A DNA stretch of 62,831 nt from a virus (lineage: Duplodnaviria; Caudoviricetes): the IMG/VR virus record IMGVR_UViG_3300025598_000039, positions 1 to 62,831 of that record; one strand, given 5' to 3'. Positions within the stretch are counted from its first letter, which is position 1; every line of letters starts with the position of its first letter. A model generated the notes under the pieces. The model ran no database searches. It had not been told where the DNA came from and saw only the letters and a list, made by a program, of their open reading frames with translations. Shown here one piece after another: positions 1,892 to 61,925 of this stretch. The translations under genes and the position numbers were made by a program.

Positions 1892-2710
1892 ATGGCAAAG
1901 TTTAAGATTGAAAAAACAAATACAGTTAACGAATATTTTGATGCAACAAACGTAGTAGGCGGAACAGGTGGTTTGTTCAATACCCTAACACCTACAGTTG
2001 TAAGCCCTAACGTTTATCTGCAAGGTGGCACAAAAGGTGCTGCTGGATCAATCATTCGCAGCAAGGGTCGTGGTAAGTTTCAAGTTGTTGATAGCACAAA
2101 CGTATACCCAAATGCTATGACTGGCGGTAATGCATATGCAATTATTACTGCTGGCAATACAAATTATTCAAAATTCACAAGTAGTTACATAAGTTATAGT
2201 CAAGGTGATATTTTTAATGTTATCAACGCAAGTGCAACTGATGTATCAACTGGAATCGTAAATCTTGTTGGTGTTGCAACATTAACAAACGTACCTGGTC
2301 AAAATTTAACAACAGGTCAAGCAAGTCTTCCAATTTATCTTAATGCATTTACTGCAAACGTAGGTAATCTTGGTGCAAGTGGTGCTACAACATTTATTAG
2401 CGTAATTTTTGCTAATGCTAACGTTGTTGGTGTATCAAAGCCAACTATTGGCAGCAGTTTTGCTAACCTCGCTCTTGGTATTGTTGGTAATGCAACTGTT
2501 ACAAGTATTGCCGCATATGGCACAAACGGTTCAAATGTTAACGTTGCTATCAGTTCCCAAACTGTTGCAAACGTAGCAAGTGCAACTATTAATACTACAG
2601 TATATGCAGCACGTTTAACTAATAAGACTGCAACAGACTTTAGTAATAACAAATATCTATGGACATTTAATACCCCAACTGCAACAACTGTTCAGTTGCA
2701 AGGTAACTAA
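1892..2710 (+). CDS. Virion structural protein, unknown function
   Basis: 272-aa ORF with strong SD AAGGAG; G/T/N/A-rich; own terminator. Confidence 0.6.
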   Translation: MAKFKIEKTNTVNEYFDATNVVGGTGGLFNTLTPTVVSPNVYLQGGTKGAAGSIIRSKGRGKFQVVDSTNVYPNAMTGGNAYAIITAGNTNYSKFTSSYISYSQGDIFNVINASATDVSTGIVNLVGVATLTNVPGQNLTTGQASLPIYLNAFTANVGNLGASGATTFISVIFANANVVGVSKPTIGSSFANLALGIVGNATVTSIAAYGTNGSNVNVAISSQTVANVASATINTTVYAARLTNKTATDFSNNKYLWTFNTPTATTVQLQGN

Positions 2711-3578: not shown

Positions 3579-3893
3579 ATGTCAGTTATAAATGCAAATT
3601 TAACAACAGGTGCTCAGGCAATTTACACAAGCACAAACAATACGGTTGTTACACTTCTTTATTTTTGCAACGTTAGTGGTTCACCTAAGACAGTTAATCT
3701 TTATGTTGTGCCAAGCAGCCAAAGCAGTGTTGGTGCACAAACTTATAATCAAATTTATAGTAACTATGCAATCACAACTAGTGATACATTAGTTGTCAAT
3801 ACAGAAAAGTTTATTTTAAGTAATGGTGATGCACTTTATGCAAACGCAAATGCAAGCGGTATTACAACAACAGTAGGATATATTACTCTCTAA
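3579..3893 (+). CDS. Small beta-rich virion protein
   Basis: 104 aa in late operon; YFCN..VNLYVVP..KFILSNGD pattern. Confidence 0.55.
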   Translation: MSVINANLTTGAQAIYTSTNNTVVTLLYFCNVSGSPKTVNLYVVPSSQSSVGAQTYNQIYSNYAITTSDTLVVNTEKFILSNGDALYANANASGITTTVGYITL

Positions 3894-34193: not shown

Positions 34194-34777
34194 TGGATGA
34201 TATTTTAATCGTAGATAATTTGTTACCAGATGGATATGCAAATGACCTTGAACTTGATATTGTAAGAAAAGGGTTTACTTGGGCTTATGTAGACGATGTA
34301 ACTTATGGTGATACAGATGGAACACCTGGTTTAACGCATGTTTTGTATGACATGGAAAATAGAATTACTAGTGAATTTTATCCATTTTTTAAACCAATAG
34401 TTTATAGTATAGAAAAAGCAAGTGGAAAAGCAATTAATACCTTATTACGTATGAGAATTGGTCTAATAAACAGAGTTGATAAAACAACATCTATCATCAA
34501 CGAACCACATGTTGATTTCTTTTATCAACATGTAACAGCATGTTATTATATTTGTGATGCAGATGGCGATACAGTGTGTTATGATCAAACGTGGTCAGAG
34601 GATATTGGTTTCGATCATAGAAAGACATTAGAAACTACTAATTTTACGATTGCAGAACGTTGCACTCCAAAGAAAAATAGATTATTTGTATTTGATGGTA
34701 AATATTACCACAGCAGTAGCACTCCTACAACTTATAATAAAAGAATAGTTTTAACAGTTAACTATATACCAGTATGA
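34193..34777 (+). CDS. 2OG-Fe(II) oxygenase
   Basis: PHVD..YYHSS..RIVLTVN facial triad and 2OG-binding Arg. Confidence 0.8.
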   Translation: MDDILIVDNLLPDGYANDLELDIVRKGFTWAYVDDVTYGDTDGTPGLTHVLYDMENRITSEFYPFFKPIVYSIEKASGKAINTLLRMRIGLINRVDKTTSIINEPHVDFFYQHVTACYYICDADGDTVCYDQTWSEDIGFDHRKTLETTNFTIAERCTPKKNRLFVFDGKYYHSSSTPTTYNKRIVLTVNYIPV

Positions 34778-36387
34778 GCAGACATATCAAATCAATTTGT
34801 ATTGTAGGTGGTGGAAGCAGCGGTTGGATGACCGCAGCAGCAATTGCTAAGCAACTTCCAAATATTAAATTAACTCTTGTAGAATCTCCAAACATTTCAA
34901 CGATTGGTGTTGGTGAATCGACACTTGGGCATATAAATCAGTATTTTCATTTTATTGGTTTAAAAGATGAAGATTGGATGCCTCACTGTAATGCAACATA
35001 CAAAACAAGTATAAAATTTATAGATTTTCGTGAAAATCCAACTAAAAAACCACATATGTTCCATTACCCATTTGGTATATTTGATGTTAGTGAAAAACCT
35101 CGTGGATTAATGGATTGGTTTTTAATTCGTGCAAATAATCCAAATATTGATCCAAGCAACTTTGCTGAATTTTTTCATGATAGTATTTTAATGACTGATA
35201 AAACTAAAATGACTAAAAACGAAAATGGAAAAATTCGTGGATTTCGTCACTGGTTAGATACTGCATATCATATGGATGCAACTGCATTCGGAATATATCT
35301 GCGTGATCACGTATGTTTGCCAAGCGGCATGACACATATTAAAGATAACGTAACTGGATTTTCTAAAACTGATGATGGTGATATAAGTGCAATTCAAACC
35401 GAAAATAGCGGTGATTTAATTGCAGATTTGTATATTGATTGCACAGGTTTTAAGAGCATGCTGCTTGAAAACGCAATGGGCGTAGAGTTTCAAAGTTTTG
35501 GTGATACTCTTTTTAACGACCGTGCTATTGCAACAATTATTCCTTATATTGATAAAGATAAGGAAATGGAAAATTATACCAGTTGCACAGCAATTGAATG
35601 TGGGTGGGTATGGAATATTCCACTGTTTAACCGAATTGGAACTGGTTATGTTTATAGTAGCAAGTATGCAACTGAAGCAGAAGCCGAAGCACAGTTTCGT
35701 AAACATTTAGCAAGTAACCGTATGGTTTATCCAGAAGCAAAACGTGCCGAACAAGCAGAACTTAGACATATTAAAATTCGTCATGGTGTGCATGCTCGTG
35801 CATGGGAACGAAACGTTGTTGGTATTGGTTTATCAAATGGATTTATTGAACCACTTGAGTCAACAGGTTTAATGCTTACTCACGAAGCCATTATTAAAAT
35901 GGTAAACGCATTAAAACAGCGTAATGGTGTTGTTAGTAAATTTGATGTTGATATGTTTAATCATGCACTTCAAGAACAGATTACAGGATTTAAAGATTTT
36001 GTCAGTGAACATTATGCTTTAAGTATGCGTGATGATACACCATATTGGAAAGCAGTAACAAGCAATAGTTTTAGTCCCGAAATGAATAAAATGGAACCAA
36101 AACTTTACAATGGTTATATTGAACTTGCACTACAAACTCATCGTGAACGTAGAATGCAGACTACTGGTATTGGTGGAATAGTTTATATCTATGCGGGTAT
36201 GGGGTTAAATCCAATTGATTCAACTCATAGTGATTTCTTAGATAGACAATATGGCGAACCATTGAATTATCGCGAAGATGTTTATAACAAGTGGTTAGAA
36301 CATCGTGATGAAGTGTTGGCATATATTGAAACATTACCAACGCATTACAAATATCTTAAAGATAATATACATATCGGTAGAAAGTAA
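34774..36387 (+). CDS. Flavin-dependent halogenase (tryptophan halogenase family)
   Basis: GGGSSG FAD motif, IGVGEST, Lys in ATYKTSIKF, WVWNIP, FIEPLESTG. Confidence 0.9.
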   Translation: MSRHIKSICIVGGGSSGWMTAAAIAKQLPNIKLTLVESPNISTIGVGESTLGHINQYFHFIGLKDEDWMPHCNATYKTSIKFIDFRENPTKKPHMFHYPFGIFDVSEKPRGLMDWFLIRANNPNIDPSNFAEFFHDSILMTDKTKMTKNENGKIRGFRHWLDTAYHMDATAFGIYLRDHVCLPSGMTHIKDNVTGFSKTDDGDISAIQTENSGDLIADLYIDCTGFKSMLLENAMGVEFQSFGDTLFNDRAIATIIPYIDKDKEMENYTSCTAIECGWVWNIPLFNRIGTGYVYSSKYATEAEAEAQFRKHLASNRMVYPEAKRAEQAELRHIKIRHGVHARAWERNVVGIGLSNGFIEPLESTGLMLTHEAIIKMVNALKQRNGVVSKFDVDMFNHALQEQITGFKDFVSEHYALSMRDDTPYWKAVTSNSFSPEMNKMEPKLYNGYIELALQTHRERRMQTTGIGGIVYIYAGMGLNPIDSTHSDFLDRQYGEPLNYREDVYNKWLEHRDEVLAYIETLPTHYKYLKDNIHIGRK

Positions 36388-55492: not shown

Positions 55493-55506
55493 ACGCTGTG
55501 GGGTTC
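55487..55506 (-). pseudogene. 3' remnant of a tRNA
   Basis: GAACCCCAC-AGCGTTC-A-CCA abutting the HNH stop codon. Confidence 0.6.
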
Positions 55507-55934
55507 TATTTTATAAGACCAGAATATCTATGGCTTTCTTTATTTCCATTTCCTTTGTTTAATGCTTTCCATGTTGGCGTTAAAGAATGACAATTTGGAC
55601 AAAGAACTCTTAGATTTTCTTCTTTATTGTTAGAACAATCTCCATCAATATGATCTATTTCTAATGGTGACTTTCCTGTTTTGGGGTTTACTTTATTCCA
55701 TCCACATTCGGAGCAACTATAATTATTTTTTTCTAACAAATAATTTCGTAAAGCAGGTTTAATTCTAAATCCTACTTTATACCCTTTATCTGTTCCATTA
55801 AACCAATCTTCTAATACTTTTTTAGTTTTTGACTCACCGTTACATTTATTACTACAAAATATTCCGTATGAACTTTTTCCATGTGTAAAATTAACGCCGC
55901 AATTTTTACAAACACTTTTTATTTTACTTGGCAT
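55506..55934 (-). CDS. HNH homing endonuclease
   Basis: CKNC..FCSNKC, CSEC..LEIDHIDG..N..NLRVLCPNCH. Confidence 0.9.
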   Translation of the reverse strand: MPSKIKSVCKNCGVNFTHGKSSYGIFCSNKCNGESKTKKVLEDWFNGTDKGYKVGFRIKPALRNYLLEKNNYSCSECGWNKVNPKTGKSPLEIDHIDGDCSNNKEENLRVLCPNCHSLTPTWKALNKGNGNKESHRYSGLIK

Positions 55935-60854: not shown

Positions 60855-60928
60855 TGGCATCCCGTGTAGGAGTCGAACCCACGCCTAGACTTTTGGAGAG
60901 TCCCGTGCTACCGTAACACTTACGAGAT
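60855..60928 (-). tRNA. tRNA-Trp(CCA)
   Basis: GGACT-CT-CCA-AA-AGTCT; G73, CCA. Confidence 0.88.
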
Positions 60929-60940
60929 ATAACAACTTAA

Positions 60941-60965
60941 GGGGGCGGATTTAAAATCCGCCCCC
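60941..60965. repeat. GC-rich perfect hairpin
   Basis: GGGGGCGGATTT-A-AAATCCGCCCCC. Confidence 0.8.
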
Positions 60966-60983
60966 ACCCACGAAGAAAAAATC

Positions 60984-61198: not shown

Positions 61199-61471
61199 TT
61201 AGAAGCGAACGCCTTGATCCATGAGCGCACGGATACCAGCGGCAACCATTTCACGGGTAGGATTGCCAAGACGATACTTCTTGGAAACTTCACCTTTTGC
61301 ATTCTTGTGTTCATTCAAGTAGATTGCATAGCCCTTCAAGCGAAGTGAAGAGATTGCAGCGGCAGGATTGGCGACGCCAAAACGAGCCGTAATCTGCTTA
61401 GCAGTAAGCTGCTCTCCAGCCTTAAGAACTTCAAGAACACGATCAGTATTAGAAACGGTAACAGTCTTCAT
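61199..61471 (-). CDS. Small winged-helix/HTH DNA-binding protein (90 aa)
   Basis: RVLEVLKAGEQLTAKQITARFGVANPAAAISSLRLKGYAI; SD AGGAGA; GC-richer codon usage. Confidence 0.75.
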   Translation of the reverse strand: MKTVTVSNTDRVLEVLKAGEQLTAKQITARFGVANPAAAISSLRLKGYAIYLNEHKNAKGEVSKKYRLGNPTREMVAAGIRALMDQGVRF

Positions 61472-61522
61472 TTGTCTTTCTCCTGTAAAAGCGAGGAACA
61501 CCATGTCCTCATCAACATATAC

Positions 61523-61550
61523 ATAATAGCACAACTGCATTATAAGTCAA
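61523..61550 (-). promoter_or_regulatory. Sigma70-like promoter of the HTH gene
   Basis: TTGACT-N11-TGTGC-TATTAT. Confidence 0.65.
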
Positions 61551-61733
61551 GAGAAAAATTAAGAAAAATCAAAAAAATTTGCACAAATTTTGTGCAATTT
61601 TATGGGCAAAAGTGTCAAAAAATTGACATTCACCCCATTTTACACCGCCGAAACCACCTATTCAGCCATTTGGCCCAAGTACTGGTCGATGGGTAGCCAT
61701 ATGCTTAGGGGCTACCAGCCTGCCATACCAAAT

Positions 61734-61765
61734 AAAAAAACCCCCGAAACTTTCGCTTCGGGGGC
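61734..61765 (-). terminator. Attenuator terminator
   Basis: CCCCCGAAGC-GAAA-GTTTCGGGGG followed by T7. Confidence 0.9.
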
Positions 61766-61793
61766 TAAGTGCATACTCTAATGTGCGTTCACA

Positions 61794-61874
61794 TTAGGCA
61801 CACGCCCCCACCATCCAGAAACCTTCTGGCATGCGGCAAATGATATAATCGTAATGTTTAGGCGTGTTGTTCAT
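61794..61874 (-). CDS. Leader peptide MNNTPKHYDYIICRMPEGFWMVGACA (26 aa)
   Basis: Promoter, purine-rich AGAGAG, ATG, 26 codons and TAA about 30 nt before the terminator; 3' codons complementary to the terminator arm. Confidence 0.75.
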   Translation of the reverse strand: MNNTPKHYDYIICRMPEGFWMVGACA

Positions 61875-61895
61875 AATCACTCTCTGTTGTAGGTT

Positions 61896-61925
61896 TATTT
61901 ATACCACAAAAAAATAGTTTGTCAA
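61896..61925 (-). promoter_or_regulatory. Dual sigma70/late promoter for the leader
   Basis: TTGACA-N11-TGTGG-TATAAATA. Confidence 0.75.

Follow-up and report, generated by a model that had tools for sequence, protein, structure and literature searches.

Why should a phage place a short open reading frame (ORF), framed by a promoter and a terminator of its own, ahead of its transfer RNA (tRNA) genes? The question is raised by a 62,831-nucleotide (nt) viral contig, IMG/VR record IMGVR_UViG_3300025598_000039, which we call the window, meaning the whole stretch of DNA that was analyzed. On its minus strand, at positions 61734-61925, there is a leader unit that lies just upstream, in the direction of transcription, of a tRNA array. 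Phage tRNA arrays are now viewed as countermeasures to tRNA-cleaving defenses as well as devices for codon supply, and the control of their expression has so far been largely obscure. Here we argue that the leader is probably a ribosome-mediated (leader-peptide) transcription attenuator, which would gate a structured RNA that we call A2 and the head of the tRNA array. At about 290 nt, the complete module is small.

Sequences and relatives

The window is a fragment of a very large phage, given a CheckV completeness of only 19%. It encodes tail-sheath and tail-fibre genes, and ARAGORN finds in it 19 tRNA genes, which share the minus strand and lie between 52217 and 60928. We gathered relatives of the leader by pattern scans of IMG/VR and of Joint Genome Institute (JGI) metagenome contigs, which brought the number of leader copies to 44, including the one in the window. 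Since several records, viral and metagenomic, plainly represent one and the same contig, we count distinct sequences and not rows: compared from the -10 hexamer to the T run, the 44 copies represent 19 distinct variants. The phages that carry these variants are uncultured freshwater giants, closely related and forming a narrow group, and all the evidence presented here is computational.

A promoter, a short reading frame and a terminator

The leader unit starts with a sigma-70-like promoter (61898-61925, minus strand, as are all other features of the window unless noted), formed by TTGACA at 61925-61920, a 16-nt spacer ending in TGTGG, and TATAAA at 61903-61898. The -35 and -10 hexamers are kept in all 19 aligned variants; a simple promoter scan missed the site because its -10 ends in A. 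The region comprising the ribosome binding site and the ORF (61794-61884) begins ~16 nt past the predicted transcription start with a Shine-Dalgarno (SD) sequence, GAGAG (61884-61880), which stands 5 nt ahead of an ATG at 61874. The frame has 26 codons (coding length 81 nt), closes with TAA at 61796-61794, and translates as MNNTPKHYDYIICRMPEGFWMVGACA. The unit ends with an intrinsic terminator (61734-61766), with a 12-pair stem (61766-61739) that includes seven G-C pairs, a GAAA loop, and a run of seven Ts (T7) reaching 61734. This stem is 100% paired in the 19 variants, and it sits between the leader ORF and the downstream genes. An earlier note on this DNA, made from the sequence of the window alone, had read a promoter, a 26-codon ORF, and a GAAA-loop terminator with T7 on this strand, and all three are present.

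Is the ORF translated? All 19 variants have retained the SD, the ATG, and a stop in frame, and their ORFs are 26-28 codons long. Within the ORF, gaps sum to whole codons (one extra codon in L119, a net one extra in the L084 group), unlike the loop just past the TAA stop, which varies by 1 and 2 nt. In seven variants, a 1-nt insertion removes the TAA, and the frame continues for two codons (…GACALM) to a TGA that lies within the same hairpin stem as the original stop. A codon table of 16 variants has synonymous changes at codons 5, 7, 8, 10, and 17. Codons 2, 21, and 22 vary freely, codon 8 is Tyr or Asn, and codon 11 is Ile, Asn, or Met; the conserved peptide positions are N3, P5-H7, D9, Y10, C13, and R14. 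We infer that the leader ORF behaves as a translated frame.

The codons themselves do not name an obvious amino acid to be sensed. The 26 codons use 17 different amino acids, and we find no run of regulatory codons, the nearest being H-(Y/N)-D-Y at codons 7-10. In the same codon table, codons 6-10 (61845-61859; K-H-Y-D-Y, with Tyr or Asn at codon 8) form a candidate stall window: a Lys codon followed by four NAY codons, unpaired, and conserved as amino acids and not as nucleotides. The chance of such a Lys/NAY run in a 26-amino-acid peptide of this phage is ~0.025 by a post hoc estimate, and the run is absent from the L084 group. As a suggestive detail, a ribosome stalled at codons 6-10 would cover the first of the pairing segments described below. 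The earlier note had stated that the 15 amino acids used by the first 21 codons are all represented in the tRNA array (Asp only as a pseudo-tRNA); this fails for Pro and for Asp, neither of which ARAGORN finds, even with a relaxed threshold at the Asp gap. The suggestion made there, that a leader so diverse in its amino acids would sense a general shortage of charged tRNAs or the action of anticodon nucleases, is purely speculative, and the diversity says little, being what one sees in any short ORF that has no codon run.

Competing hairpins in the leader RNA

The leader RNA can be divided into four segments with alternative pairings. Segment 1, ACACGCC in codons 3-5 (61861-61867), pairs with GGCGTGT of segment 2 as an anti-antiterminator, both in the minimum free energy (MFE) fold and in the RNAalifold consensus. 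Segments 2 and 3 form an antiterminator hairpin (61760-61809), in which GGGGGC at 61809-61804 pairs with GCCCCC at 61765-61760, GTGC pairs with GCAC, and CTAATGTG (61797-61790) forms an inner stem with CACATTAG (61785-61778). The G run lies within codons 22-24, and the stop codon lies within the inner stem. Segments 3 and 4 form the terminator. The complementarity of the G run and the C run, and the perfect inner stem that brings them together into an antiterminator, were first pointed out in the earlier note and stand as described.

These structures are beyond chance. The 50-nt antiterminator hairpin has a free energy of -26.7 kcal/mol (z = -5.0), and the 164-nt leader has an MFE of -59.9 kcal/mol (z = -4.9); in neither case was any of 200 shuffles as good. 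The MFE fold of the 164-nt leader pairs the G-rich stretch of codons 22-25 with ACACGCC, and contains the CTAATGTG/CACATTAG stem and the terminator. In the window, the antiterminator is more stable than the terminator (-26.7 vs. -21.4 kcal/mol), and the ranges over all 19 variants are -25.0 to -26.7 kcal/mol for the antiterminator and -19.2 to -21.4 for the terminator.

The helix between segments 1 and 2 (the 1:2 helix, ACAYGCC/GGCGTGT) is present across the 19 variants without any compensatory change. Five of its seven pairs are invariant; one is C-G in 16 variants and U-G in 3, and another is C-G in 17 and unpaired in 2. The L084 group, which has two variants, carries an unrelated peptide at codons 4-15; its segment 1 is still complementary in the same way (ACATGCACCCC), and its 3′ half is unaltered. 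Between segments 1 and 2 there is one more hairpin, CCAGAA-GGT-TTCTGG at codons 16-20 (61815-61829), with six pairs that are 100% paired in the 19 variants; in the L084 group its loop reads TAT in place of GGT, on a stem that is maintained. This hairpin had been proposed as a protector of the G run. The hairpin exists, and the better protector is segment 1, by the pairing of ACACGCC with GGCGTGT; a possible role for the CCAGAA/TTCTGG hairpin would be that of a pause or timing hairpin.

Conservation and covariation

From codon 16 to the T run, 12 relatives have 90-98% identity to the window, while at the same 12 loci the genes for an 81-amino-acid and a 215-amino-acid protein have 63-76% identity at 11 loci and 88% at the remaining one, that of the closest relative. 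Such a level of conservation is typical of RNA genes, and to judge from these alignments, coding for a 26-amino-acid peptide does not explain it. We also considered plus-strand ORFs over the region as the cause of the conservation and rejected them, as gaps of 1-2 nt separate the relatives within A2 and within the inner loop.

The earlier note had proposed the covariation of the pairing between the G run and the C run as a check in relatives. In the outermost antiterminator pair, the base that opens the G run is joined to the one that closes the C run; 16 variants have G-C here, 2 have G-U, and a single one has A-U. The opening base doubles as the third position of codon 22, which specifies V, E, T, M, or G depending on the variant, and it stays a G everywhere but in the A-U variant. 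The inner stem has a second informative pair, with A-U in 12 of the variants and G-C in the other 7. Over the proposed structure, 98.5% of the cells are paired, versus 29-54% when the partners are slid by 1-3 columns, a generous control in that the structure came from one of the same sequences. The shuffle control also leaves the relatedness of the sequences out of account. The attenuator geometry recognized in the window thus recurs in every one of the 19 distinct variants; its RNA segments hardly vary, and two of the pairs covary.

Folding with a ribosome in place

How would the position of a ribosome affect these structures? We folded the RNA with a 27-nt ribosome mask, both on the full leader and on transcripts cut before segment 4. 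In the cut transcript of the window, the antiterminator forms when the mask is placed at codons 7-17, and it does not form with the mask at codon 20 or at the stop codon. The same is seen across the variants: the antiterminator forms in all 19 with the mask at codon 9, and in none of the 19 with the mask at the stop codon. We also weighed whether the single Trp codon (codon 20) might monitor the tRNA-Trp downstream, and discarded the idea, since a stall at that codon places the ribosome over the G run, which would favor termination.

What follows the terminator

If the terminator is regulated, what does it regulate? A2 (61643-61716) begins ~10 nt past the T run. It is an RNA of ~75 nt with a 7-pair hairpin closed by an 11-nt loop, followed directly by a long irregular hairpin. 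An RNAalifold consensus of 18 variants has 22 base pairs, nine of them with compensatory changes, and the G-U pairs fit only this strand. A2 is found after 41 of the 44 leader copies, and the remaining three run off the contig. The distance is not constant: an A2 motif, CCAAATGG, is found 53-62 nt past the terminator in 28 copies and 234-238 nt past it in 13. In those 13 of the 41 copies (e.g., L077 2667-2825, plus strand), a gene for a lysine-rich protein of 52 amino acids, with its own SD, is inserted between the T run and A2; the protein has no Pfam or PHROG family match.

The association also holds when the search starts from A2. In two independent A2 motif scans of IMG/VR, all 20 matches are in leader-bearing contigs, with one of the leaders cut by the contig end. 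A covariance model of A2 finds only the known copy in 8 sources and none in 35 others, with a single copy per locus. Rfam reports no family at threshold on the leader or on A2, and the only overlap with A2 is manA-II, at 15.6 bits vs. a cut-off of 100 (E = 4.1). A2 appears to be a new covarying RNA of ~75 nt strictly linked to the leader. We also asked whether A2 is a tRNA or tRNA-like gene, and ARAGORN does not call it. An A2 scan of genome contigs returned L126 and L127, which are chance matches in coding DNA, and L128, a phage contig described below. Contigs of the freshwater runs X18, X23, and X17 match only the 44-nt core of A2 (window 61645-61688); beyond it, their first hairpin is another one, with an identical GCATAAG loop on a stem that covaries. 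Because of these core-only matches, there are hints of more distant A2 relatives, beyond the reach of exact-pattern scans.

The next conserved feature is the tRNA array, which starts in the window with tRNA-Trp (60855-60928, by ARAGORN). That the unit lies upstream of the tRNA region, as claimed for the window, extends to its relatives: in all 12 loci examined the unit heads a co-oriented array, with every tRNA downstream of the leader and on the same strand; tRNA-Trp leads the array in 9 of them, takes the second place in 2, and goes uncalled in 1. In L078, L107, L111/L113, and L114, tRNA-Trp comes directly after A2; L092 has the same layout in the alignment, with a tRNA that ARAGORN does not call. 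The arrangement can be very tight. In L113 (plus strand), the T run ends at 848, the alignment of A2 plus flanks reaches 937, and tRNA-Trp starts at 945, after an 8-nt gap. The next sigma-70-like promoter of L113 is at 1027, and the sigma-70 scan finds no site between the leader promoter and that one. For the tRNA-Trp of the window, no sigma-70-like promoter was found either. Just upstream of that tRNA there is a perfect 10-pair hairpin, GGGGGCGGAT/ATCCGCCCCC (60935-60975), without a clear T run.

How the leader may work

A strong promoter with a strong terminator within 160 nt, followed by functional RNA genes and, in some of the phages, a protein gene, with no room for a promoter, looks like a regulated terminator. 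And with segments 1 and 2 placed in a conserved frame that is probably translated, and the stop codon in the inner stem, ribosome-mediated attenuation is the most economical explanation. Observed in the leader unit are its anatomy, its conservation, its energetics, and its synteny; termination, read-through, and what slows the ribosome we infer as follows.

The strong promoter would start a transcript carrying the 26-codon leader. When the lead ribosome keeps pace to about codon 20 or to the stop, it would cover the G run (segment 2), the C-rich segment 3 would then pair with segment 4, and RNA polymerase would terminate at T7. When the ribosome is delayed within about codons 2-17, it would cover segment 1 and leave segment 2 free; the more stable 2:3 hairpin would form first, the terminator would be blocked, and transcription would continue. 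Read-through would transcribe A2 and, in relatives without the insert described below, go on into tRNA-Trp. Slow translation would, in this manner, switch on A2 and the head of the tRNA array.

Several observations weigh against this reading. First, the covariation is sparse: there are two informative pairs, the A-U case comes from a single lineage, and most positions are invariant. The search patterns also fixed parts of segments 2 and 3, so that the set is skewed toward conserved bases. Second, in the complete leader, the terminator is in the MFE fold at every position of the ribosome mask. Of the folding with masked segments put forward in the earlier note, then, the part that shows a switch is the one on cut transcripts, between codon 9 and the stop, and since the full-leader folds always keep the terminator, the switch can only be kinetic, as in classical systems. 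Third, with no ribosome on the cut transcript, the MFE fold is the antiterminator in 16 of the 19 variants and the 1:2 state in 3. With the antiterminator as the default, termination of untranslated transcripts would depend on the 1:2 helix forming first and persisting. Fourth, the hallmark of classical attenuators, a run of regulatory codons, is missing from the leader ORF, and the conserved leader peptide could have a function of its own. Finally, the -10 hexamer is missing the final T that is usual in such sites, and a large phage may use promoters invisible to a sigma-70 scan, which makes "no promoter downstream" a weak statement.

Of the other explanations, the one that survives best, which we consider unlikely, is a stand-alone micro-gene or dual-function small RNA: the peptide, the RNA, or both would act in trans, the terminator would be constitutive, and A2 and the tRNAs would be transcribed from unrecognised promoters. 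A strong promoter and a strong terminator flanking ~155 nt fit this, as do the many conserved peptide positions with synonymous changes, and the phage may indeed use promoters that are not sigma-70. Trans-acting terminated attenuator RNAs and leader peptides are known, such as rnTrpL and peTrpL of Sinorhizobium meliloti, whose terminated leader transcript, according to published summaries, is about as long as the one here and likewise codes for a small peptide that is conserved. Those act in trans, whereas the phage leader is always linked in cis to A2, and a micro-gene leaves unexplained that the unit is never found apart from A2. It also leaves unexplained why a covarying hairpin, stabler than the terminator, overlaps the left arm of the terminator in all 19 variants, and why A2 or the SD-bearing gene for 52 amino acids starts within ~10 nt of the T run.

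A ribosome-independent RNA switch, in which a protein, a tRNA, or a small ligand sets the choice between the 2:3 and 3:4 hairpins and the ORF is secondary, is in our opinion improbable. It would account for a nucleotide conservation that from codon 16 on far exceeds coding needs, and for the antiterminator being the default without a ribosome in 16 of 19 variants, in which case a destabilizing factor could be the regulator. It would not account for an SD, an ATG, and a frame kept in all 19 variants, with whole-codon gaps and synonymous changes. The location of segments 1 and 2 inside the ORF, and of the stop in the inner stem, is as expected if the position of the ribosome matters, and no Rfam riboswitch or leader family is found at threshold.

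An arrest-peptide sensor similar to TnaC or to antibiotic-sensing leaders, in which the nascent peptide (e.g., …CRMPEGFW…) would stall the ribosome on a small molecule or exit-tunnel ligand and the stall would set the RNA fold, draws on the amino-acid-level conservation with synonymous changes and on the lack of a codon run, and is nevertheless very improbable, because the conservation of P16-W20 and G23-A26 is fully accounted for by the RNA stems that they encode, the L084 group has very different codons 4-15 with the same RNA, a stall at codon 20 or later covers segment 2 and favors termination, and to our knowledge the peptide has no known arrest motif.

Each of these three explanations covers a part of the observations, and none covers the coding signature, the overlapping helices, and the promoter-less downstream genes together. 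We keep ribosome-mediated attenuation as the probable reading. A more specific version of it, that the leader is a phage-borne gauge of the decoding capacity of the host, is in our estimate improbable. The tRNAs for Lys and for His, Tyr, Asn, and Asp are those cut by known anticodon nucleases. Ribosomes would stall at the Lys and His/Tyr/Asn/Asp codons 6-10 when the cognate tRNAs are depleted, either by a host defense nuclease or by starvation, and only then would the terminator be passed into A2 and the tRNA array. A2 could act in the manner of the put RNA described below, carrying RNA polymerase through the array, and the whole would be an inducible counter-defense circuit.

Comparison with known systems

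The enterobacterial attenuators of trp, his, thr, ilv, and pheA share with the phage leader a promoter-proximal short ORF with an SD, four segments that are predicted to form 1:2, 2:3, and 3:4 hairpins, a terminator placed directly before the regulated genes, and a stop codon beside segment 2. They also share a terminator that is less stable than the antiterminator, as the logic of antiterminator plus anti-antiterminator requires. Unlike this leader, which is carried by a phage, they have a run of regulatory codons, and their cargo is biosynthetic enzymes, where the phage has a structured RNA and tRNAs. The best Rfam match is a weak one to RF00514, His_leader (for the window, a score of 23 bits and E = 0.13; for L113, 22 bits and E = 0.2; the threshold is 49 bits), and because these matches are below threshold we see no sequence relationship to the classical attenuators.

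Other leader peptides sense general ribosome trouble. In leaders of the PA5471.1 type and other antibiotic-responsive leaders, any slowing of the ribosome relieves the attenuator. The Pseudomonas aeruginosa PA5471.1 leader (armZ/MexXY) and the antibiotic-responsive leaders of Bacillus have a short leader ORF without a codon run (PMC13041342, PMC13689557). They control bacterial resistance or efflux genes, whereas the cargo here is phage RNA genes, and we liken them by layout and not by homology.

As for A2, stable small RNAs in or beside a phage tRNA cluster have a precedent in the species 1 and 2 RNAs of T4. GOLLD and ROOL are also structured non-coding RNAs associated with phage tRNA genes, according to the summary of their occurrence (PMC12286853). 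A2 is much smaller than either of them. The put RNA of phage HK022, in the outline given in PMC9378689, has ~70 nt and two adjacent stem-loops, and is found past an early promoter of the phage; the genes that come after it have terminator-like structures between them. The likeness of A2 to put is one of size and two-hairpin layout alone, and A2 comes after the terminator, not before it.

A literature search, judged from abstracts, yielded no account of leader-peptide attenuation ahead of tRNA genes arrayed in a phage. If our reading is correct, the phage would couple the expression of a structured RNA and of tRNAs to the state of the host translation machinery, by a mechanism otherwise known almost only from bacterial amino-acid operons.

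Neighboring genes and minor observations

In the window, a winged-helix-turn-helix (HTH) gene (61199-61550, with the coding region at 61471-61199 and its own promoter at 61550-61523; Pfam HTH_39, E = 1.5e-6) lies between A2 and tRNA-Trp. Its protein has only distant matches in GenBank phages. The gene, together with its promoter, two palindromes, and terminator, is absent from the relatives in which tRNA-Trp comes straight after A2. Being absent from many relatives and having its own promoter, the HTH gene looks like a variable insert and not the conserved target, and the proposal that this adjacent regulator is what the leader controls is not supported; A2 and then tRNA-Trp follow the leader instead. 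The two palindromic hairpins after A2 (61572-61636) are GTCAA-N6-TTGAC, within a long hairpin (61604-61636), and TTGCACAAA/TTTGTGCAA with a T run (61572-61597), which is terminator-like. Both are seen only in relatives whose gene after A2 aligns with the HTH gene, and they are candidate operator or terminator sites for it.

Other search anchors were tried and set aside. With the HTH gene as the anchor, the leader element is present in only 4 of 75 loci of HTH homologues (blastn). The 81-amino-acid protein leads to 13 further loci, in more distant phages, without an upstream tRNA-Trp, leader, or A2. One pattern scan had a single match, L099, which is GC-rich and unrelated, and another returned five chance matches (L100-L104). 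Among GenBank phages there is no DNA match to the region (only two 34-nt chance matches), no match to the leader peptide (a single chance match within a ligase gene, E = 2), and no match to the 72-amino-acid protein encoded upstream.

In one metagenome contig (L120, plus strand, at 3620 and 9095), the whole unit and nine tRNAs are present twice, 5475 nt apart, which may be either a tandem duplication or an assembly artifact. A GTDB genome contig (L128, RGPR01000083.1), of 8.4 kb and from the same type of phage, is binned within a metagenome-assembled genome of Gammaproteobacteria, which is either a hint to the host or a binning artifact. ORFs of the homing-endonuclease type are scattered through the tRNA array, among them an HNH ORF at 55506-55934 of the window (minus strand). 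In L094, an ORF between A2 and tRNA-Trp (~1950-2560, minus strand) is presumably GIY-YIG-like, to go by its first residues. Finally, at 34774-36387 of the window (plus strand), an ORF of 537 amino acids matches a PHROG annotated as tryptophan halogenase (E = 5e-149), an unusual cargo beside tail genes.

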